Of a stretch of DNA of 48,946 bases, positions 8,114-17,534 are shown piece after piece (positions within the stretch are counted from its first letter, which is position 1; the number at the start of each line of letters is the position of its first letter). The position numbers and the translations under genes were made by a program. This DNA comes from an uncultured Candidatus Saccharibacteria bacterium (GTDB lineage Bacteria; Patescibacteriota; Saccharimonadia; Saccharimonadales; JAGQNJ01). Under the pieces are notes generated by a model, which saw only the letters and a program-made list of their open reading frames with translations, ran no database searches and was not told where the DNA came from. The DNA lies in the NCBI GenBank assembly GCA_964565615.1, contig CAZMFO010000004.1:1-48946 (forward strand), given 5' to 3'.

Positions 8114-9097
8114 ATGAATTATCAAAACAAGCAGATTGCAGATGTAGCTCAAAAACTTCAAAAAGAATTTGAAGAGCTTGATGATAAATCAAAAATTTTA
8201 AAATCTAGCGACCTTAAAGATTTGTATGCACAAATACCGTTGCTTAATCCAAGAGATAGGGCGAGTTTTGGTAAAGAGCTAAATCATTTGAAGGATTATT
8301 TGCAGAACCAAGTTAAAAAATCGCAACATAATCAGAGGGTGATTGAACCGATTGATGTAACTGCTCCATTTGCCGAAAACACCCCAAGCAACCTACGCCC
8401 TCGTTTGTTGACCAGTAATTTGGGGAGCAGACATCCTTTAACGACCGAAACAGAGCAAATAGTAGATATATTTACTAGAATGGGCTTTGAGGCAGTAGAG
8501 TCGCGACAGCTAGATGATGAGTACCATATGTTTAGTAGTTTGAACTTTCCAGAAGGGCACCCGGCGCGAGATGATTACGATACTTTCGTAACTACAGAGG
8601 GGTTAATTGCTCCAGCACATACTAGCACTATGCAAAATCGAGTATTAAGAAGCAAAAAGCCACCAATAAGATATGTAATTCCGGGGCGTGTTTTTCGTAA
8701 CGAAGACCTTGACGCCACACACGAGCATACCTTTTATCAACTAGAAGGAGTTTATGTAGATAAGGGTATCAATGTCGGGCATCTAATCGCTACATTAAAA
8801 ACCTTTTTAGAGGAATACTTTCAAGAAGAAATAGAGGTCCGAACTCAACCATTTTACTTTCCTTTTACCGAACCGAGTTTTGAATATGCAATAAAGAGGC
8901 CGGGCAAAGATTGGTTGGAAATTTTAGGTTGTGGTTTGATTCATCCCAATGTGTTAGCTCAAGGTGGCATTGATCCAAAGAAATATAGTGGTTTTGCTTG
9001 GGGCTTTGGAATTGACAGGCTAGTGATGATGAAATATGGGATTGAAGATGTGCGTCATTTTGAGTCGGCAAAACTAGATTTTTTGAGGCAGTTTTGA
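8114..9097 (+). CDS. pheS: Phenylalanine--tRNA ligase alpha subunit
   Basis: HPARDDYDTF, HTSTMQ, GRVFRNE..DATH.H.F.QLEG, FPFTEPS and GFAWGFGIDRL motifs. Confidence 0.97.
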   Translation: MNYQNKQIADVAQKLQKEFEELDDKSKILKSSDLKDLYAQIPLLNPRDRASFGKELNHLKDYLQNQVKKSQHNQRVIEPIDVTAPFAENTPSNLRPRLLTSNLGSRHPLTTETEQIVDIFTRMGFEAVESRQLDDEYHMFSSLNFPEGHPARDDYDTFVTTEGLIAPAHTSTMQNRVLRSKKPPIRYVIPGRVFRNEDLDATHEHTFYQLEGVYVDKGINVGHLIATLKTFLEEYFQEEIEVRTQPFYFPFTEPSFEYAIKRPGKDWLEILGCGLIHPNVLAQGGIDPKKYSGFAWGFGIDRLVMMKYGIEDVRHFESAKLDFLRQF

Positions 9098-9435
9098 TGA
9101 AGATAGTTAAAAAGATATCAATATCGGAATTAAAAACTATGGCAGAAAAAATGGACGGAAACTTAGTTAAAGCAGATGTTGATGTTGCTAAACAGATTGT
9201 TATAGTAGATATGCCTATGCATTTTGAGGGCGAGCAAGAGTTATTGCAAAAAGGCTCTAGCCAAAAAGATCTTTGGGGTATCAATTTGTTTCCAAAAAAG
9301 TTTGGCTCTGATGAATTTATAGCTTTTGAATCAATGATCAACATTAAACCACCCAACAATCAGAGTATGACCATACAATCAGAAGAAATATGCAATCAAA
9401 TCATAGATATTATCAATGGGGTTGTCTATGAGTAG
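9094..9435 (+). CDS. DUF5674-family protein
   Basis: 'LVKADVDV', 'MHFEGEQELL..GS.QKDLWGINLFP' and 'FESMINIKP' recognised as DUF5674-like. ATGA coupling to the pheS stop. Confidence 0.75.
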   Translation: MMKIVKKISISELKTMAEKMDGNLVKADVDVAKQIVIVDMPMHFEGEQELLQKGSSQKDLWGINLFPKKFGSDEFIAFESMINIKPPNNQSMTIQSEEICNQIIDIINGVVYE

Positions 9436-9742
9436 TTACCACACGAACTCTTTAAAAAACGCTGATATTTTTATGGTTATGGGCTCAATTTATGCAGAGG
9501 TAGCACGATACGACTCGGCAATTGCATCTAATAAGATTGATCAAGCAAAACAGGCTATCGTTCGAACTAATGAACTTGTTAAGTATTCGCAAAAATTAAC
9601 ACAAATCAATAGGGCGCAAAAACTTGAGTTACAGAAGTTTTATGATGTCTTTTTACAGCGCACACAAAATTCTGAAATAAGTAATTTGGATGATTACTTA
9701 TTACCATTTGCTATGGCTTCACGCAGGAGGTCGGCAGTATGA
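9428..9742 (+). CDS. Helical hypothetical protein (DUF5674 partner)
   Basis: Overlaps the DUF5674 stop. All-helical pattern 'MGSIYAEVAR...RTNEL...YLLPFAMASR'. Confidence 0.65.
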   Translation: MSSYHTNSLKNADIFMVMGSIYAEVARYDSAIASNKIDQAKQAIVRTNELVKYSQKLTQINRAQKLELQKFYDVFLQRTQNSEISNLDDYLLPFAMASRRRSAV

Positions 9743-10167
9743 ATCTACAGACGGTTAGTGAGTTTTTAGATACCCAAGAAACATGCGTTCTATCGACTGT
9801 CAGCAGTGAAGGCTGGCCAATGTCGGCGACAGTTGGATTTTCTCATAATGATAAATTGACTATTTTAATAGGGACAAGCAACAAAAGCCGAAAATATCGG
9901 AACCTTTTAAACCACCAAAAGGTGTCAATCGTTATTGGTACAACTGCGCCGAGAACTGTGCAGTATCAGGGAGTTGCCAAAGAAGTTAATGCTGTTGATA
10001 TAGCCAAAAGATTGGCGTTACATTTTAATAAATTGCCCTCTGCCAAAACTTTTTATGATGACCCAGACCAGAGGTATTTTATAATCACTCCAATGTGGTT
10101 ACGGATGACTGATTATTCACAAAAACCGTCAATTTTTGAAACAGAGGAGTTTAATTATGAAAATTAG
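9739..10167 (+). CDS. Pyridoxamine 5'-phosphate oxidase-like FMN-binding protein
   Basis: 'VLSTVS.EGWPMSATV', 'T..KSRKYRNL..HQKVSIVIG' and 'VQYQG.A' split-barrel motifs. Confidence 0.8.
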   Translation: MNLQTVSEFLDTQETCVLSTVSSEGWPMSATVGFSHNDKLTILIGTSNKSRKYRNLLNHQKVSIVIGTTAPRTVQYQGVAKEVNAVDIAKRLALHFNKLPSAKTFYDDPDQRYFIITPMWLRMTDYSQKPSIFETEEFNYEN

Positions 10168-12652
10168 TGTTAACTGGATTAAAGAATTTACTGATATTAA
10201 GCTGTCTGTTGATGAATTAGTTGCAAGAATTGGGGCACAACTTGGCGAAGTTGAAGAAGTAGTTAGTCTTGGAGAGCGGTATCAAGGAATAATTGTTGCC
10301 AAAGTTATGTCCTGCGAAAAACACCCAAATGCCGATAAGTTAAGCGTCTGTTTGCTAGACGACGGCGGGGTAGCAAAAGGCGTAAAGAGAAATGCCAACG
10401 GCTGGGTGCAAGTTGTTTGTGGGGCGCCTAATGTTAGAAAGGGCATTACCGTCGCTTGGCTCCCACCAGGAGTAATTGTGCCTAGCTCGTTTGCTGGAGA
10501 GCAATTTAAGTTAGAGGCAAGAGAACTTCGGGGCGAATTAAGTAACGGTATGATCGCTAGTGGTCAAGAACTGGCTATAAATAACGATCATTCAGGTATT
10601 TTAGTACTAGACAAGCCGGCAAAACCCGGAGATCCGTTTGCCGAGGTGTATCAACTTAATGACTATATTATTGATGTAGAAAATAAGATGTTTACTCATC
10701 GTCCAGATTGTTTTGGTCAGCTTGGAGTGGCTCGTGAAGTTGCTGGGATTACAGGAGTTAGGTTTGTTAGCCCAGATTGGTACTTGAGTGAAATGGACAG
10801 CCTTCAAAACAAATCTACAAAAAAAATAGATATTCAGATAGAAAATCAGATACCAGAGCTTGTACCACGATTTATGGTATTGCCGATATCTGGGGTAAAG
10901 GTAGCACCAGCACCAATTATGGTTCAGAGTTTTTTAAGTCGAGTTGGAATTAATCCAATAAATAACATAGTTGATATTACCAATTTTGTGATGGCGCTTA
11001 CTGCTCAACCAATGCACGCTTATGATTACGATAAGCTGGTGTCTTTGGACAGCACTGCTACCTTTGTAATTAGAAAGCCAAAAAAGGGCGAGAGGATTGC
11101 CTTACTTAATGGTAAAACAGTAGAACCAGACAAGAACTCTATTATGATAGCTTGCAAGAAAGCTCCGCTTGGTATTGGGGGTGTAATGGGTGGTTCTTCT
11201 ACAGAGGTTGATTACCAGACAAAAAACATTGTGTTAGAGTGCGCCAGTTTTGATATGTATGCCATCAGGCGATCTAGTATGGCAAACGGATTGTTTACCG
11301 ATGCAGTTACCAGATTTAGTAAGGGTCAGAGCCAAAGGCAAAATGATCGGATTATGGCTTATGCTTCGGCGTGGGTAAAAAAGTTAGCTGGCGGAGAAGT
11401 AGCCGGTGGCTTGCAAGACACGATAGAAGATATTGGCAAAATAAAGCCAGTGGTGGTTTCTGCAGAATTTATCAATCAAAGACTGGGAGCTAACCTGACT
11501 ATAAAACAGATAACCAAGATATTAAATAATGTTGAATTTTTGGTGGAAGAAAAGAAAGATGAACTGTATATTACAGTACCGTTTTGGCGGACAGATGTAG
11601 AGATTGCCGAAGATGTGGTTGAAGAGGTTGGGCGACTGTATGGTTATGACAATTTACCAATCAGTTTGCCAAATCGAAACTTAAAACCCGCTAGTTATAA
11701 TTCAATTTTGGGAACCAAATCAAAGGCTAGGAGTGTCTTGTCTTCTGCAGGAGCTAACGAGGTGCTGACTTATAGCTTTGTTCACGGTAGGTTGCTAGAA
11801 GCCGTTGGGCAAGATAAAGAACTGGCTTATCAAATAAATAATGCCTTGAGTCCTCAACTTCAATACTATCGGTTAAGTTTGCTCCCCAGTTTGCTTGAAA
11901 AGGTACACTTAAACATTAAGACGGGCTATGGACAGTTTGCTATTTACGAAGTTAATAAAACTCACGATAAATCAAACACTCACGAAGACGGTCTGCCGAT
12001 AGAAGAAGAGCGCTTAGCGTTAGTATTTACAGCTGACGACAAGACCGCAACAGTCTATAATGGGAGTGCCTTTTATCAGGCAAAGCTATACCTAGAGACC
12101 TTGCTTGAGGGCTTTGGTTTAAAAAAGCTTGTCTTTCAGCCGGCCACCTCGCACTCGCCTAAAACAGATACCGGCAAGCAATGTTTAGCACCTTTTGAAG
12201 TATCACGAAGTGCATATTGTAAGACTAGTGATGGGGTGTTGCTTGGGATTGTCGGAGAGGTTAATGCTCAAGCAAAAACTAGCTTAAAGTTACCAAGCTA
12301 TACTGCAGGGTTTGAGTTAAATCTGGGGATGATTGACTCGTATAAGAGCAGTAAAGAGTACCTTCCTCTGGCACGGTTTCCGGATACATCTCAAGACTTA
12401 ACAGTAACAATAGATCGATCAACTTCGCTAGCCGAGCTTGAGCAAGCTATTCACAGATCTCTAACAAAACAATCAACAGAATATGGTTATGTGTGGCGAT
12501 GTAGTGTTATTGATATTTATCAAAAAGAGTCTTCGTCCAGTAAAAATATAACTTTTAAAATTACTTTATCTCACCCAGAGCGGACACTGGTTACAGAAGA
12601 AGTCAATAAGCTAATAGAAGTTATTGCTAAGGCGGGCATACAACCTAAATAG
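10157..12652 (+). CDS. pheT: Phenylalanine--tRNA ligase beta subunit
   Basis: HPNADKL, VVCGAPN, HRPDCFG..GVARE, NNIVDITN, VPFWRTDV....DVVEEVGRLYGY and RFP...QDL motifs. SD (gaggag) precedes ATG 10157. Confidence 0.97.
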   Translation: MKISVNWIKEFTDIKLSVDELVARIGAQLGEVEEVVSLGERYQGIIVAKVMSCEKHPNADKLSVCLLDDGGVAKGVKRNANGWVQVVCGAPNVRKGITVAWLPPGVIVPSSFAGEQFKLEARELRGELSNGMIASGQELAINNDHSGILVLDKPAKPGDPFAEVYQLNDYIIDVENKMFTHRPDCFGQLGVAREVAGITGVRFVSPDWYLSEMDSLQNKSTKKIDIQIENQIPELVPRFMVLPISGVKVAPAPIMVQSFLSRVGINPINNIVDITNFVMALTAQPMHAYDYDKLVSLDSTATFVIRKPKKGERIALLNGKTVEPDKNSIMIACKKAPLGIGGVMGGSSTEVDYQTKNIVLECASFDMYAIRRSSMANGLFTDAVTRFSKGQSQRQNDRIMAYASAWVKKLAGGEVAGGLQDTIEDIGKIKPVVVSAEFINQRLGANLTIKQITKILNNVEFLVEEKKDELYITVPFWRTDVEIAEDVVEEVGRLYGYDNLPISLPNRNLKPASYNSILGTKSKARSVLSSAGANEVLTYSFVHGRLLEAVGQDKELAYQINNALSPQLQYYRLSLLPSLLEKVHLNIKTGYGQFAIYEVNKTHDKSNTHEDGLPIEEERLALVFTADDKTATVYNGSAFYQAKLYLETLLEGFGLKKLVFQPATSHSPKTDTGKQCLAPFEVSRSAYCKTSDGVLLGIVGEVNAQAKTSLKLPSYTAGFELNLGMIDSYKSSKEYLPLARFPDTSQDLTVTIDRSTSLAELEQAIHRSLTKQSTEYGYVWRCSVIDIYQKESSSSKNITFKITLSHPERTLVTEEVNKLIEVIAKAGIQPK

Positions 12653-12776: not shown

Positions 12777-13337
12777 ATGGCTAGACTACCAATACCGGGA
12801 CAAGACGGAGGAGTATGGGGCAACATTCTTAATGAATATCTATCTGTATCTCACGAATCAGATGGCACTATTAAACCAAGTGCTATACCACCATCTTCCG
12901 GAGCTACAGGCGCCACAGGAGTTCAAGGAGCTACAGGTGCACAAGGCCCAGCTGGCCCTCAAGGAGCAACCGGAAGCTTAGGAGTAACGGGCGCAACAGG
13001 TGCAACCGGCATTGCTGGCCCCCAAGGAGCAACAGGAGTACAGGGCGCTACCGGTTCTGGATCTACTGGAGCTACAGGAGTTCAAGGCTCAACCGGAGTA
13101 CAGGGCGCAACCGGCCCTCAAGGCGCTACCGGCCCGGGAGTAATCTCTGGTGGTACTACTGGTCAAGTATTAGCTAAGGCTTCAAACCTAGATAACGATA
13201 CGGTATGGACAACCGTTCCTAGCAATCCGGTAACATCAGTCAACGGCAAAACTGGCCCAACTGTTGTACTGACCGCACCCGATGTAGGAGCCCAACCCGC
13301 AGGTTATTCAAGATCATTTTTATTAGGAGGTATGTAG
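12777..13337 (+). CDS. Collagen-like fibre protein with phage tail-fibre-type motifs
   Basis: 17+9 Gly-X-Y triplets, then '[17 protein letters not shown]' and '[19 protein letters not shown]' motifs that I recognise from phage tail fibres. Confidence 0.75.
12900..13139 (+). repeat. Collagen-like Gly-X-Y repeat (GAT/GVQ/GPQ-rich)
   Basis: Residues 42-121: 17 triplets, a GS interruption, then 9 triplets. Confidence 0.95.
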
Positions 13338-13338
13338 T

Positions 13339-13668
13339 ATGGCAACAACCGTAAAAGTATTAGGGCAATCAGCTCCGTCAGCAAACACAGACACCACTCT
13401 GTATACAGTACCGGCATCTACTTCAACAATTGCCAGTTCGGTAATTGTATCTAACAGAGGAGCTACTAGTGCTACATTTAGAGTAGCTGTTCGCGTTGGG
13501 GGTGCCCCTTTAGCGAACCAGCATTACATCTTTTATGACATAGCCATTCCTGCTAAAGATTCTTTTGTCGCCACAATTGGAGGAACCTTCTCGGCTGGCG
13601 ATGTCATTACCGTTAGAGCATCAACAGCAGACCTTTCGTTTAATCTATTTGGGGAAGAAACTGCGTGA
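13339..13668 (+). CDS. Phage-type small beta-rich protein
   Basis: SD aggagg. 'MATTVKVLGQSAPSA.TDTTLYTVPAST.TI.SS..VSNRG..ATFRVAVR...YDI.IPA.DS...G.T..AGDVITVRAS...SFNLFGEE' resembles a small protein family I recall from tailed-phage structural regions. Confidence 0.7.
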   Translation: MATTVKVLGQSAPSANTDTTLYTVPASTSTIASSVIVSNRGATSATFRVAVRVGGAPLANQHYIFYDIAIPAKDSFVATIGGTFSAGDVITVRASTADLSFNLFGEETA

Positions 13669-14966
13669 GCATAAGGTGGGCATCAGATACGCCACAAAGC
13701 ACTCGGCTTGTTGGGCAACCTCAAAGTAGTACTAATGATGACTCTTGGGTAAGACCAGCCGATTGGCTTACATTACCAACTGTTAACATAGGTGACGAAA
13801 AGGTGGTGCTGCTGGTCGCTGTGTGGGACCTGTCGCACAACTGGTTGGCGTTCGCCTGTACGGGCGCTTACACGGTGGATTGGGGGGACGGTTCCGCACC
13901 GGCGAACGTCGCGTCGGGTGTGAAGGCGTCACATGATTTCGCGTGGGCTGATATCGATTCGGGCACTTTGAGTGTGCATGGGTATCGGCAGGCGATCGTG
14001 ACGATCACCCCGCAAGCCGGGCAGCATCTGACGTCGTTGTCGTTCTCTCAGCCGCATGTGGGTGCCGGGGGTGGGGTGTCGAACGGGACGTTGGAAGCCG
14101 TGTTGGCGGTCCCGTATGCGACATCGTTCACGTTCTACAACAGTGCCACGGTGGCGATGGACAACCGCTATTTGGAGCATGTGTCGATCGTGGACGCACC
14201 GTCGCTGATAACGGCGTACCAGATGTTCGCGGGCATGAATGCATTGCAGAAGGTGGATGCACCGGATGCGACAGGCGCATGGACCAGCACAATCACCAAC
14301 TTCTCCCAGATGTTCAGCAACTGTTCTTCCCTGCGTGAGGCCCCGTTGTTGAACACGTCCGCGGGAACCACCTTCTCCCAGATGTTCCGCAACTGTTATT
14401 CGTTGCGTGAGGTTCCGGCGTTGAACACCACAGCGGGAACCAACTTCTCCGGCATGTTCAACAGCTGTTCTTCCCTACGTGAGGTCCCGTTGTTGAACAC
14501 CGCCGCAGGAACCAACTTCTCCGAAATGTTCCGCAGCTGTTATTCCCTGCGCGAGGTTCCGGCGTTGATCACCGCTGCGGGAACCAACTTCGTCAACATG
14601 TTCAGCGGCTGTTCTTCTCTGCGTGAGGTCCCGGCGTTTAACACGTCCGCGGGAACCAACTTCTCCGGCATGTTCTACGCCTGTTCTTCCCTGCGCGAGG
14701 TCCCGTTGTTGAACACCGCAGCGGGAACCAGCTTCTCCCAGATGTTCGGCAATTGCAACAGTTTGCATTCTGCGCCGCTCGCAGGCACCCGATACAGCAT
14801 CAACTACACCAACTGCTACCTCGACGCCGCCGACCTCGACGCCATCTACACAGCGTTGGGCACCGCAGCCGGAGCACAAACAATCACCGTCACAGGCAAC
14901 CCCGGTATCGGCAGCGACGACCCGTCAATAGCGACCGCCAAAGGCTGGACCGTAACCGGCTCGTAA
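13665..14966 (+). CDS. BspA/DUF285-like leucine-rich-repeat protein, phage-tail-associated type
   Basis: N-terminal WVRPADWLTLP, PKD-like 'YTVDWGDG', 24-aa repeats (MF.xCxSLREVP..NT.AGTNF), C-terminal 'TITVTGNPG...DPSIATAKGWTVTG'. GTGA overlap with the upstream gene. Confidence 0.8.
   Translation: MSIRWASDTPQSTRLVGQPQSSTNDDSWVRPADWLTLPTVNIGDEKVVLLVAVWDLSHNWLAFACTGAYTVDWGDGSAPANVASGVKASHDFAWADIDSGTLSVHGYRQAIVTITPQAGQHLTSLSFSQPHVGAGGGVSNGTLEAVLAVPYATSFTFYNSATVAMDNRYLEHVSIVDAPSLITAYQMFAGMNALQKVDAPDATGAWTSTITNFSQMFSNCSSLREAPLLNTSAGTTFSQMFRNCYSLREVPALNTTAGTNFSGMFNSCSSLREVPLLNTAAGTNFSEMFRSCYSLREVPALITAAGTNFVNMFSGCSSLREVPAFNTSAGTNFSGMFYACSSLREVPLLNTAAGTSFSQMFGNCNSLHSAPLAGTRYSINYTNCYLDAADLDAIYTALGTAAGAQTITVTGNPGIGSDDPSIATAKGWTVTGS
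14301..14762 (+). repeat. 72-bp (24-aa) tandem repeat, 6 full copies plus 1 partial
   Basis: Units start at 14301, 14373, 14445, 14517, 14589, 14661 and 14733 (exact 72-bp period). Confidence 0.97.
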
Positions 14967-14996: not shown

Positions 14997-15024
14997 TTGA
15001 CATTATAAAAAAAGTTCTTATAAT
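14997..15024 (+). promoter_or_regulatory. Consensus sigma70 promoter with no downstream CDS
   Basis: Exact TTGACA (14997-15002), 16-nt spacer, exact TATAAT (15019-15024). Predicted +1 near 15031. Confidence 0.8.
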
Positions 15025-15030
15025 CAGATT

Positions 15031-15556
15031 AGTTTGGTAGAGTCTTAATTTAGATTCCTAAACTGTACATTGACAGATGTAAGATACACATTAGGCAATG
15101 ACTACAGGTATTACAAATGTAATGATTGTAGCCATTGTCTAATAATTTTAGCTATAGATCTAAAGTCTGGAGATTCTGTAGTTCCACCGCTACAGAAAAC
15201 ATACGGAACCGCTCCTCCGTATGTCTCCAGCGCAAGTTGGGTGTCTGCCGTTTTTGGCAGAACCGCCTCCCCGCCAGCGGTTGTGGGAATCACGCACCCA
15301 ACTTGCAAGTTCTGGAACCCCATCAAGAGAGTCAACCAAATAGGTTGAGCCATTTAGGTAGGTTCCAAATAGATCGTGGGCCCCACGGCTACTGGTTCGC
15401 CAGTTCCGCCTTCCACCCATAAGCCGTGGGGTCCACATAGGCGTAAATTGCGCTAAAATGCAAAAATTTGTTGAGAGGCGTTTTTTAAGTTGAGGACTTC
15501 TTGTTCTCCTTTTCGCTACTCCAAATTACTATCTTACATCTGTCATCTTTTTCTTT
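15031..15556 (+). ncRNA. Candidate large structured non-coding RNA (about 525 nt), family not recognised
   Basis: Promoter directly upstream. 5' hairpin starts at the predicted +1. Perfect 16-bp closing helix 15071-15086/15530-15545, more than 12 nested helices, UUCG tetraloop, G-U pairs favouring the + strand, GC about 60% in the core versus about 23% in the flank, U-tract 15546-15556. Confidence 0.8.
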
Positions 15557-15767
15557 AGTTTGATATTAGCTCACGAATTGTCGTGGTTTAATATAAAACT
15601 ATTGTTCTTAGCAAGATGAGAAAATAACCAGATTGTCTTTACCAAAGAGGTCTTACGATTTGTGGTTGTTTTGGTGGATCACTAGCCTTCTAAAAAACAT
15701 CAAAAACAATCGGCTCTTGGCTACCCGACTTTTTGTTTGATTAAAGAGGGTGTAAACTATTGTTAAA

Positions 15768-17534
15768 GTGAAGTACCTAATCAATATCTTAAAACTGTCA
15801 TCTTCTCTATGGAGATACTACTTAGCCATTAGCCTATTAAGTGTTTTGGTGGCCCTATCTGGGCTGGTTACTCCTTTGCTTTCTGGGCGAGCAATTGATC
15901 TATTAAGGTCTGGCACAGATAGTTTATCAACCCTGCTGGTGATTTCTGTCTTGATATTTTTAGCGGACATATTTTCTACTTTGGTGTCTAACTATGGAGG
16001 CTATTTAGGTGATGTGATGACATCTAAGCTAGAGCGTATTTTGAGTACACGGTACTACCAGCACTTGCTACAGTTGCCACAGACCTATTACGATAGCGAA
16101 CTTTCTGGCAAGATAATAAATCGCTTAAATAGGTCCATTACTCAAATAGGCAATTTTGTCCATATGTGGTGTAATAACTTTTTGCAGTTTGTTTTTAGCA
16201 CCATTTTGTCATTAGGCATTATTGCTTACTTTAGCTGGCCAATAGCTTTACTTTTGTTTTTGCTGTACCCAATTTATGTATTTATGACCATTAAAACTAG
16301 CGGAAAGTGGTTAAAATATCAGGCAAAAATTAACAAAAATTGGGATATCGCCTCTGGCCGATTTGCCGAGAGTATTACCCAGATTAAGGTAGTAAAAAGT
16401 TTTGTTCGCGAGGCTTCTGAACTGCGACATTTTGACAAATACTACAAAAAAATTACCAGTATTGTTTACCCACAGTCTAGACTTTGGCATAACCGCGATA
16501 TTCAGCGTCGCTTGATATTGAATATCATTTTTTTGGGAGTGTACGCGTTGATTTTTTATCAGGCTACCCAAAATCAATATACGCCCGGGCAGGCTGTAAC
16601 CTTAATTTTGTATGCTATGCAAATTAGAATTCCAATTTTTACCATTAGTTTTTTGGTAGATAACACACAGCGAGCTATTGCCGATAGCAAAGATTATTTT
16701 GATGTTATGGCTATTAAGTCGCAAATTTTAGACCTACCAAATGCGACCACGCTTAAAGTTAGCTCTGGAGGCATTGAGTTTAAGGATGTAAGCTTCTCGT
16801 ACGGCAACGCACTAGTTTTAAACAAAATCTCTCTTAAAATTAAGCCCTCATCAAAAATTGCTCTGGTTGGCGAGAGTGGAGAGGGTAAAACCACTTTAAC
16901 AAATTTGATAATGCGTTTTTACGAACCGAACTCGGGACAAATCATCATTGATGGGCAAGATATAGCTACGGTAACACAAAGTAGTTTACGACAGAACATT
17001 GGTGCGGTTTTTCAGGAATCGGCATTATTTAGTGGAACGATAAAAGAGAACATTTCATACGGTAGGCCAAACGCTAAACAAAAAGATATAGAAGAAGCAG
17101 CCAAAATGGCAAATGCACATCAGTTTATTAGCGAACTAAAAAAGGGTTACGATACAGAGATAGGCGAGCGTGGCTTAAAGCTCTCTGGCGGGCAAAAACA
17201 ACGAATAGCTATTGCTAGAGCACTTCTTAAAGACGCCCCGATACTAATTCTTGATGAGGCGACCAGTAGCTTAGATAGCAAGAGTGAGCGAATGGTGCAA
17301 GAAGCCCTTGAGAGGCTGATGGAGAACAGGACAACCATTGTTGTGGCTCATCGTTTAAGTACTATACAAAATGTTGATACCATAGTTACGCTCAAGAAAG
17401 GCAAGATAGACGAGGTTGGCACACCAGCGGAGCTAGCAAAATCGGGCGGTATCTATTCTCGCTTACTAGAGTTGCAACGCGAGGGTGTTTCTTCTGGCAA
17501 AGAGCGTTTACAAAAGTTTGATATCGCCAGCTAG
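15768..17534 (+). CDS. ABC exporter, fused permease/ATPase (MsbA/multidrug-like)
   Basis: N-terminal TM domain, GESGEGKT, LSGGQKQR, ILILDEATSSLD and AHRLST. Confidence 0.93.
   Translation: MKYLINILKLSSSLWRYYLAISLLSVLVALSGLVTPLLSGRAIDLLRSGTDSLSTLLVISVLIFLADIFSTLVSNYGGYLGDVMTSKLERILSTRYYQHLLQLPQTYYDSELSGKIINRLNRSITQIGNFVHMWCNNFLQFVFSTILSLGIIAYFSWPIALLLFLLYPIYVFMTIKTSGKWLKYQAKINKNWDIASGRFAESITQIKVVKSFVREASELRHFDKYYKKITSIVYPQSRLWHNRDIQRRLILNIIFLGVYALIFYQATQNQYTPGQAVTLILYAMQIRIPIFTISFLVDNTQRAIADSKDYFDVMAIKSQILDLPNATTLKVSSGGIEFKDVSFSYGNALVLNKISLKIKPSSKIALVGESGEGKTTLTNLIMRFYEPNSGQIIIDGQDIATVTQSSLRQNIGAVFQESALFSGTIKENISYGRPNAKQKDIEEAAKMANAHQFISELKKGYDTEIGERGLKLSGGQKQRIAIARALLKDAPILILDEATSSLDSKSERMVQEALERLMENRTTIVVAHRLSTIQNVDTIVTLKKGKIDEVGTPAELAKSGGIYSRLLELQREGVSSGKERLQKFDIAS

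Follow-up and report, generated by a model that had tools for sequence, protein, structure and literature searches.

A candidate gene for a large structured noncoding RNA at the pheT–ABC exporter locus of Saccharimonadales

Introduction

Does the DNA between pheT and the gene for an ABC exporter in a Saccharimonadales genome encode a large structured RNA and, if so, one of a known kind? The window, by which the whole stretch of DNA analysed is meant, comprises 48,946 nt of the forward strand of contig CAZMFO010000004.1 (positions 1–48,946; assembly GCA_964565615.1) from an uncultured Candidatus Saccharibacteria bacterium, and the candidate RNA region lies at positions 15031–15556 on the + strand of this 49-kb window. 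An earlier note, made from the letters of the window, had proposed that a large structured RNA, not described before and equipped with a promoter, is encoded at this place. The proposal was supported by the fold of the region, its homologues, its strand bias, the lack of a conserved open reading frame (ORF) and the absence of an Rfam match, and the locus is very probably a genuine, novel gene for a structured noncoding RNA (ncRNA).

Large intricate RNA classes are rarely found in bacteria, and OLE, GOLLD, ROOL, HEARO/omega RNA and raiA each led to unexpected biology. Saccharibacteria and other members of the candidate phyla radiation (CPR) have small genomes, of roughly one megabase at most, and apart from the universal ncRNAs very few are known from them. 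A literature search on large ncRNAs in Saccharibacteria or the CPR returned nothing relevant.

The homologue set was built from contigs encoding the nearest relatives of the downstream ABC exporter, which carry Saccharimonadales or Saccharibacteria labels; these labels place the host among CPR bacteria, in line with the earlier note, which had pointed to CPR genomes. The set comprised seven full-length RNAs (from the window, L002, L005a, L009, L011, L012 and L028; hereafter the seven members), a 3' fragment from L025 and a divergent tandem copy, L005b. Locus L001 belongs to the same population as the window, and its RNA is 100% identical.

Fold and domain organisation

Fold significance was assessed by comparing the minimum free energy (MFE) with that of dinucleotide-shuffled sequences (n = 100 for 15031–15556). 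The + strand of this region reached an MFE of −217.5 kcal/mol, compared with −132.6 ± 7.0 kcal/mol for the shuffled sequences (z = −12.2; 0 of 100 as good), and the − strand one of −203.6 kcal/mol (z = −11.7). When the entire 48.9 kb was scanned in 243 segments of 400 nt each at a 200-nt step, the two segments covering the RNA scored z = −15.9 and −7.8; since the next best value, outside the RNA, was only −4.2 (median −0.8), the structure is unique within the window. G.U pairs made up 12 of the 171 pairs on the + strand. The G+C content of the RNA core was 52–54%, compared with 40.9% for the window, so that the value of about 60% given in the earlier note was overstated. All of the helices proposed there were present in the MFE fold, within 1–2 nt of where they had been placed. 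The features of the locus are, from 5' to 3':

14997–15024, + strand: sigma-70-type promoter, TTGACA, 16 nt, TATAAT (12 of 12 consensus matches)
15031–15064, + strand: P0 hairpin at the predicted 5' end of the transcript (fold and alignment; motif GGUNGAG(U/C)...(A/G)UUCC)
15070–15086, + strand: P1, 5' strand (UUGACAGAUGUA at 15070–15081 invariant in all seven members)
15090–15143, + strand: P2, long hairpin, UUAGGCAAUGA...UCAUUGUCUAAU (fold and alignment)
15145–15152, + strand: P3, 5' strand, closing the entire variable core (MFE fold)
15157–15162, + strand: P4, 5' strand, paired with 15370–15375 (MFE fold)
15165–15231, + strand: three-way junction with two hairpins, one loop carrying CCGCUCCU (MFE fold)
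15232–15306, + strand: Pb, four-way junction with a 13-bp closing helix and three hairpins (MFE fold)
15313–15367, + strand: branched hairpin (MFE fold)
15370–15375, + strand: P4, 3' strand (MFE fold)
15376–15436, + strand: Pc, 15-bp GC-rich helix (GUGG...CCAC; 15376–15390 with 15422–15436; fold and register comparison)
15391–15404, + strand: inner hairpin of Pc with a C(UUCG)G cap (MFE fold)
15405–15421, + strand: unpaired pyrimidine-rich 17 nt of Pc, UCCGCCUUCCACCCAUA (MFE fold)
15452–15459, + strand: P3, 3' strand (MFE fold)
15465–15527, + strand: 3' domain, irregular hairpin (MFE fold)
15530–15545, + strand: P1, 3' strand (UACAUCUGUC at 15535–15544 invariant in all seven members and the L025 fragment)
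15546–15596, + strand: probable 3' end region with a U-rich tract and a terminator-like hairpin

The two strands of P1 (15071–15086 and 15530–15545) form a perfect helix of 16 bp, which is also seen as an inverted repeat. The hairpin at 15090–15143 had been described as a 17-bp helix; the helix is present, but it is about 23 bp long with bulges. The three-way junction is specific to the window, its relatives having a single hairpin at this place. In the 3' domain, a purine-rich 5' strand (GAGAGGCG..GAGGAC) is joined to a pyrimidine-rich 3' strand (GUUCUCCUUUUCGCUACUC), an arrangement that resembles the pairing of Shine-Dalgarno (SD) with anti-SD sequences, and the motif GCUCCUCC / GUUCCUCC within it is conserved in all members. 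The predicted domain set (P0, P1, P2, core and 3' hairpin) is supported by comparison of the homologues.

Promoter and transcript ends

The exact TTGACA-16-TATAAT sequence that had been noticed upstream of the RNA is present, with its −35 element at 14997–15002, a spacer of 16 nt and its −10 element at 15019–15024, and it is the sole strong promoter-like site on either strand between 14800 and 15900. A promoter of the form TTGAC(A/T)-N16/17-TA(T/A)(A/T/G)(A/T)T was found in all seven members at a constant distance from the 5' hairpin, with P0 beginning 6–7 nt past the −10 box in each of them. The invariant 5' strand of P1 itself opens with the −35 consensus TTGACA (15070–15075 in the window); no −10 box of a second promoter was found at a suitable distance from it in any member.

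At the 3' side, a U-rich tract (15546–15556) abuts the 3' strand of P1 and is followed by a weak terminator-like hairpin (15571–15586) and UUUAAUAU. No strong intrinsic terminator was predicted after P1, between the RNA and the ABC gene, in the window. The element spans the stretch from the promoter to just beyond the 3' strand of P1, because the 68-nt gap at L004, a locus lacking the element, is the homologue of the stretch lying beyond P1 in L009.

Homologous loci and their distribution

Six further full-length homologues were found, all located between pheT and the ABC exporter gene on Saccharimonadales contigs, and the L025 fragment and L005b belong to this same locus. The ancestral order at this locus is pheT, an intergenic gap and the ABC exporter gene. 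The gap and the state of the element at the related loci are:

L002 (= L003): pheT–ABC gap of 661 nt, full element
L009 (= L010): pheT–ABC gap of 634 nt, full element
L011: pheT–ABC gap of 701 nt, full element
L012 (= L013, L014): pheT–ABC gap of about 620 nt, full element
L028: pheT–ABC gap of 617 nt, full element
L005: pheT–ABC gap of 1178 nt, full element and a second, divergent tandem copy
L004: pheT–ABC gap of 68 nt, element absent
L026: pheT–ABC gap of 46 nt, element absent
L025: gap running to the contig end, 3' part of the element only
L015/16: other gene context, element absent

Similarity detected with nhmmer between members was confined to the flanks of the element. The members share a common plan that comprises, from 5' to 3', the promoter, P0, an 11-nt spacer, UUGACAGAUGUA, P2, a G+C-rich and largely unalignable core, the purine/pyrimidine hairpin bearing GCUCCUCC, and finally UACAUCUGUC. 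The RNAs measure 420–620 nt, and their orientation relative to the flanking genes is identical in all seven.

In a neighbour-joining tree of the exporter proteins, the RNA-less locus L004 was sister to the RNA-bearing L012, and the RNA-less L026 stood beside the RNA-bearing L028. Since RNA-less and RNA-bearing loci thus adjoin on the tree, the element has been repeatedly lost or gained and is dispensable, and from this repeated loss or gain we infer that the gene is accessory. Neither a 12-mer search with mismatches nor the covariance models R1 and R2 detected another copy, whether in the window itself or across some 158 kb of DNA from related loci. An exact-pattern scan of genome contigs matched only a genome already in the comparison set; motif matches in metagenome and viral contigs were discarded as chance occurrences, as they lay inside coding DNA with no 3' strand of P1 downstream. 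These results suggest that the RNA family is rare, a conclusion that goes no further because the scan patterns were strict, probably too strict for diverged members. As far as seen, the family is confined, within the material compared, to one group of Saccharimonadales.

At L005, a second, divergent module follows the RNA in tandem (L005:9591–9990 = L006:1–390; GCA_964577565.1). This module, L005b, has the same frame of promoter, P0 and P1, with P1 covaried (UUGACAAGUGUA / UACACUUGUC), and lacks P2. Its cargo includes an ORF of 41 amino acids with two CxxCxGxG motifs, preceded by a strong SD sequence (GGGGGUGAU); no homologue of the encoded peptide was detectable.

Covariation of the helices

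When each of the seven members was folded alone, the + strand gave z values from −7.5 to −18. In all seven, the + strand had the lower free energy of the two, the difference ranging from 4 to 70 kcal/mol, and contained more G.U pairs than the − strand. Alignment of the 5' part (P0, the 5' strand of P1, and P2) with MAFFT and consensus folding with RNAalifold yielded 31 pairs, of which 17 were changed on both sides, and 95.8% of the cells in this alignment were paired. The 17 double-change pairs in P0 and P2 compare with 7.4 ± 1.8 in shuffled alignments (0 of 500 reached 17) and with 3–5 in a control in which the pairing partners were slid by 1–3 columns. P0 contributed 6 of them (11 pairs; 97% of cells paired) and P2 the other 11 (20 pairs; 95% of cells paired). 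One position in P2 is G.U, A-U or G-C depending on the member, and the P0 pair at alignment columns 23/37 is G.U throughout the seven members; on the opposite strand, this pair would become a C-A mismatch.

The helices P1, P3, Pb and Pc were taken from the MFE fold of each member and matched by register, because the MAFFT alignment of Pc misplaced the window sequence. By this procedure, which favours pairing by construction, 28 of 46 helix positions in the P1 extension, P3, Pb and Pc showed double compensatory changes. The 10-bp core of P1 was invariant in all seven members, and its inner extension covaried (AGA/UCU, UAU/AUA, UGA/UCA, AAA/UUU); L005b carries a double swap within the core (GACAAGUGUA / UACACUUGUC). 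A counterpart of P3 with another sequence was predicted at the same position in L002, L012, L028 and L005a, and the architecture of Pb, again with other sequences, in L002, L009, L012 and L028. Compensatory changes affected 9 of the 12 positions in the closing helix of Pb, and 7 of 14 positions in Pc covaried. These register-matched counts chiefly indicate that predicted helices are retained in corresponding positions although their sequences differ, as illustrated by the stem of the four-way junction (GCAAGUUGGGUG in the window, GCAGAGAGGGC in L002, GCGGAGGAUGC in L009).

A full-length MAFFT and RNAalifold analysis of five members recovered P1, P2 and Pc, with 73 pairs, 31 of which showed a compensatory change. 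The same approach gave no consensus for the 3' domain, because the sequence alignment was too poor. Both the alignment and the register tests indicated that substitutions in the homologues preserve the helices rather than break them.

Comparison with known RNA families

At gathering score, none of the 4227 families of Rfam 15 matched the window or the seven related loci. Relaxing the limit to E ≤ 10 or E ≤ 5 gave, for the window region and the homologues, nothing beyond hairpin noise of the miRNA, snoRNA, snRNA and sRNA type, far below threshold. ARAGORN detected no tRNA or tmRNA in the 49-kb window. The claimed novelty therefore holds with respect to Rfam, as no covariance model matched the window RNA or any homologue, and the reported lack of an RNase P, tmRNA, SRP, 6S, intron or riboswitch signature was borne out by Rfam and ARAGORN. 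Membership in the OLE, ROOL, GOLLD, raiA and HEARO families was rejected on the same grounds (no Rfam model match), as were group I and II introns, known ribozymes and riboswitches. The housekeeping RNAs (RNase P, tmRNA, SRP, 6S) were likewise set aside, there being no Rfam or ARAGORN match; the RNA is not an essential housekeeping RNA, because it is absent from the close relatives L004 and L026. Judged by these sequence and model comparisons, the family is new: no relationship to a catalogued family of RNAs could be detected.

Coding potential and mobile DNA

A missed protein-coding gene or an mRNA for a small protein would be the least probable explanation of the locus and can scarcely be credited. 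Gene callers place minus-strand ORFs of 80–92 amino acids in two members, and the 41-amino-acid ORF of L005b has its two CxxCxGxG motifs and a good SD sequence; but neither strand carries an ORF conserved among the members, the only matches being stretches of 9–26 amino acids in shifting frames that mirror conserved nucleotide motifs. In the RNA region of the window, the ORFs are short, overlap on both strands and lack SD sequences, no long ORF runs across it, and the L005b peptide is without homologue.

The inverted repeats of 10–16 bp formed by P1 might alternatively be the termini of a miniature transposon or the recombination sites of an invertible segment, the RNA-like structure then being incidental. 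The locus has perfect inverted repeats (16 bp) flanking about 450 bp, a patchy presence among sister lineages and the tandem duplication at L005, as such a DNA element might. However, the repeats do not enclose the conserved promoter and P0 and are therefore probably not element termini, and no target-site duplication is present, the flanks ACAT and TCTT being different. The element further occurs at a single locus in the 49-kb window and the approximately 158 kb of related DNA, in the same orientation in all seven members; no transposase or recombinase adjoins it, and its interior shows strand-asymmetric G.U pairing and compensatory changes throughout. A DNA element is thus very improbable. 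An inverton in particular was rejected given the single orientation in seven of seven members, a G.U bias that fits one strand and the absence of a recombinase among the neighbours. The idea of a template and variable region of a diversity-generating retroelement was also dismissed: there is no direct repeat between the RNA and the leucine-rich-repeat (LRR) gene upstream of it, and no reverse transcriptase is present.

Gene neighbourhood

The genes flanking the RNA in the window are:

upstream, in order: pheS, DUF5674 protein, small ORF without Pfam match, PNPOx-like protein, pheT
10136–12652: pheT
12777–13337: collagen-repeat protein
between the collagen-repeat and LRR genes: 109-amino-acid protein with weak tail-fibre-like PHROG hits
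13665–14966: BspA/DUF285 LRR protein
15768–17534: ABC exporter, downstream of the RNA, followed by a NUDIX protein

The synteny pheT / RNA / ABC exporter / NUDIX / FKBP is conserved. The cassette of three genes between pheT and the RNA (12777–14966; 51–58% G+C) is missing at all six of the related loci; it has the look of surface or adhesin-type genes that were recently inserted. The earlier note had taken it to be phage-tail-like; its products are the collagen-repeat protein, the 109-amino-acid protein with its weak hits and the BspA/DUF285 LRR protein. Within the LRR gene, seven tandem units of 72 nt (14223–14870) encode 24-residue leucine-rich repeats that are 61–84% identical. L001, an independent assembly of the same population, differs from the window by 2 single-nucleotide polymorphisms towards the 3' end of the LRR gene (within 14647–14966).

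That the RNA is borne by a phage or island and travels with the collagen/LRR cassette would be suggested by its position directly after this G+C-rich segment, whose first two proteins match tail-fibre PHROGs. These matches come mostly from collagen repeats, however, and at six homologous loci the cassette is missing and the RNA directly follows pheT, so that adjacency to the cassette is incidental and the implied prophage context is not supported. Moreover, blastn searches against 50,697 phage and 72,556 plasmid records returned no match, and the motif matches in viral contigs were chance. Linkage of the homologues to the fibre cassette was accordingly not kept, whereas linkage to the ABC exporter was kept in all, and a phage- or island-borne RNA is less likely again than a DNA element.

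Between pheS and pheT lies a variable set of small inserted genes that is not the same in all relatives (8114–12652 in the window; L004, L005, L009, L012) and includes DUF5674, PNPOx, SDR, ASCH/DUF3850, GDSL lipase and NYN genes. From these comparisons, the whole pheS-pheT-ABC stretch appears to behave as an insertion hotspot.

The constant position of the RNA directly upstream of the ABC gene, in the same orientation, could mean that it is a cis element of the exporter, acting as a giant 5' leader or through transcriptional interference by read-through. This would agree with the lack of a predicted strong intrinsic terminator ahead of the ABC gene and with the overlap, in relatives, of the hairpin after P1 with the putative −35 region of the exporter. 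Against it, a −10-like box (TAAACT/TACACT/TATACT) lies 7–11 nt before the exporter start at all loci, including L004 and L026, which lack the RNA but retain the same proximal promoter and gene. The start codon of the exporter (ATG) has no SD sequence at any locus, RNA-bearing or not; with no SD sequence and a proximal −10-like box, the exporter looks leaderless, with its own promoter, and poor translation would be expected of a read-through transcript, since its ATG lacks an SD sequence. The closed P1 ends and the second tandem module at L005 fit an autonomous RNA better, and the constant position may reflect vertical inheritance alone. Control of the exporter in cis is therefore quite improbable.

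Many genes in the window (for example those at 8114, 15768, 17592, 26625 and 40842) have no SD sequence and a −10-like box (TATAAT, TATACT or TAAACT) about 7–12 nt before their start, and others have a clear AGGAGG; this pattern suggests that leaderless mRNAs may be widespread in the window. Positions 15521–15549, comprising the 3' strand of P1 and its tail, and positions 15776–15804, corresponding to exporter codons 3–12, are identical at 24 of 29 positions. Pairing of the 5' strand of P1 with the start of the exporter mRNA was considered and set aside: the resemblance is probably due to chance, because its register is inconsistent across loci.

Pyrimidine-rich motifs and proposed mode of action

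Among the 5-mers of the member cores, CUCCU showed the strongest over-representation, and UCUCC, CCUCC and UCCUC also ranked in the top five (counts of 19 for CUCCU, 15 for UCUCC, 15 for CCUCC and 14 for UCCUC, compared with 3.2–3.5 expected; present in all seven members). CCUCC-like motifs were thus enriched 4–6 fold, with no similar enrichment of their purine complements, and each RNA carries 4–7 clusters of them. At least one cluster with a predicted probability of being unpaired of ≥0.75 occurs in six of the seven members, in five of these six within the asymmetric internal loop of Pc. In the window, the four-way junction carries the exposed cluster in one of its hairpin loops, and the segment of Pc at 15405–15421 is also pyrimidine-rich and unpaired. 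The pyrimidine-rich single strand at Pc recurs among the members, and unpaired positions are depleted in G. By sequence, the CCUCC-like segments resemble the anti-SD core.

These observations can be combined into the following scheme. The consensus promoter would drive a + strand transcript of about 515–565 nt that starts with the P0 hairpin and whose 5' and 3' ends pair in the sequence-invariant P1. P1 would enclose P2, the core closed by P3 and the purine/pyrimidine 3' hairpin, with the core containing the four-way junction and the long GC-rich Pc hairpin exposing a pyrimidine-rich strand. P0 and P1 may shield both ends from exonucleases and so yield a long-lived RNA; the invariant P1 and P0 probably serve stability, processing or recognition. 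The RNA would act in trans through its CCUCC/CUCCU-like segments, which may base-pair with purine-rich RNA, ribosome-binding sites for example, or titrate a protein that recognises sequence of this kind. The mechanism is drawn from analogy to regulators with C-rich loops (RNAIII, RsaE, 6C) or to sponge RNAs, and pairing or titration by pyrimidine-rich loops is put forward tentatively, as a possible but rather doubtful mode of action. For the whole explanation, in which a novel structured ncRNA gene is joined to a trans-acting pyrimidine-loop mechanism, we express a cautious preference.

Several points weigh against this combined explanation. The comparison comprises seven full sequences, all from fairly close relatives; the register-matched counts are biased toward pairing, as they rest on helices from each member's own MFE fold; and the invariance of the 10-bp core of P1 exceeds what the need for pairing alone explains. 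The transcript, its ends and its abundance are predictions from the DNA, and a clear intrinsic terminator after P1 was not found in most members. Several CCUCC-like motifs are predicted to be paired, and L009 is without any strongly exposed one.

Discussion

OLE shares an operon with its protein partners and is found in Firmicutes that are anaerobic or extremophilic. The RNA described here is like OLE in its size of around 600 nt, its many nested helices and junctions, its lineage restriction and its islands of conserved sequence within a conserved architecture; it is unlike OLE in having its own promoter, no dedicated protein neighbour, a variable core and a Saccharimonadales host, and it does not match the OLE model. 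ROOL and GOLLD are often found in a prophage or tRNA-adjacent context. The present RNA is comparable to them in size, ornateness and sporadic distribution, but differs from them in the lack of a model match, in its housekeeping synteny outside any prophage and in the absence of tRNA genes from the 49 kb. OLE, ROOL and GOLLD form homo-oligomeric assemblies, with multimers reported for ROOL and GOLLD (PMC12286853). An architectural RNA of this type, whose function would follow from its three-dimensional fold, a ribonucleoprotein or a homo-oligomer, with P1 and P0 as protein-recognition or assembly sites, agrees with the length of 420–620 nt, the many nested multi-way junctions, the retention of architecture despite idiosyncratic insertions, and the invariant helical segments not explained by pairing alone. 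It is nevertheless unlikely: no similarity to the OLE, ROOL and GOLLD models was found, no partner-protein neighbour is conserved (housekeeping neighbours persist where the RNA is absent), and the length and content of the core vary widely, which is unusual in a precise three-dimensional machine.

RNAIII of Staphylococcus aureus, about 500 nt long, is built of many hairpins and presents C/U-rich single strands that can pair with G-rich ribosome-binding sites. Resemblance of the present RNA to RNAIII, RsaE/RoxS and actinobacterial 6C, which is an analogy only, lies in the enrichment of CCUCC-like motifs, at least one of which is exposed in six of seven members; in contrast to such regulators, it has no homology to them, no quorum-sensing context and no conserved embedded peptide. 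Regulation at SD sites by this RNA would be limited, because many genes here look leaderless. Like the CsrB/RsmZ sponges, it has several copies of a short motif, partly in loops, that could titrate a partner, but the motif is pyrimidine-rich rather than GGA, and only 4–7 clusters are present per RNA. Its strong promoter and the long-range end helix enclosing a GC-rich RNA recall the stems of rRNA precursors, in which the paired 5' and 3' flanks are cleaved by RNase III, an analogy by which P1 could be a processing or recognition site; the enclosed RNA is, however, not rRNA, and P1 measures only 13–17 bp.

A further, rather improbable reading treats the element as a modular CPR RNA, the first lineage-specific large ornate RNA of this radiation, in which a fixed frame (promoter, P0, P1) carries a fast-evolving GC-rich cargo with anti-SD-like strands. 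As part of the same joint claim, the frame could be duplicated and reloaded, as L005b with its zinc-ribbon-like ORF cargo may exemplify, and the RNA could imitate ribosome-binding sites, or the target of a factor recognising the 16S rRNA 3' end, and so act as a decoy for them; alternatively, the frame could be a recognition tag by which an episymbiont processes, packages or exports the RNA.

A novel structured ncRNA gene remains the reading that we prefer for the locus. Since an accessory RNA gene of 0.5 kb has been kept across species whose neighbouring proteins are 65–74% identical, a real function is implied. Tempered by a narrow accessory distribution, the finding is of interest for RNA and CPR biology, and the family offers a testable object, with covarying helices, an invariant 10-bp helix for which a recognition partner must be sought, and recurrent exposed strands that resemble the anti-SD sequence.

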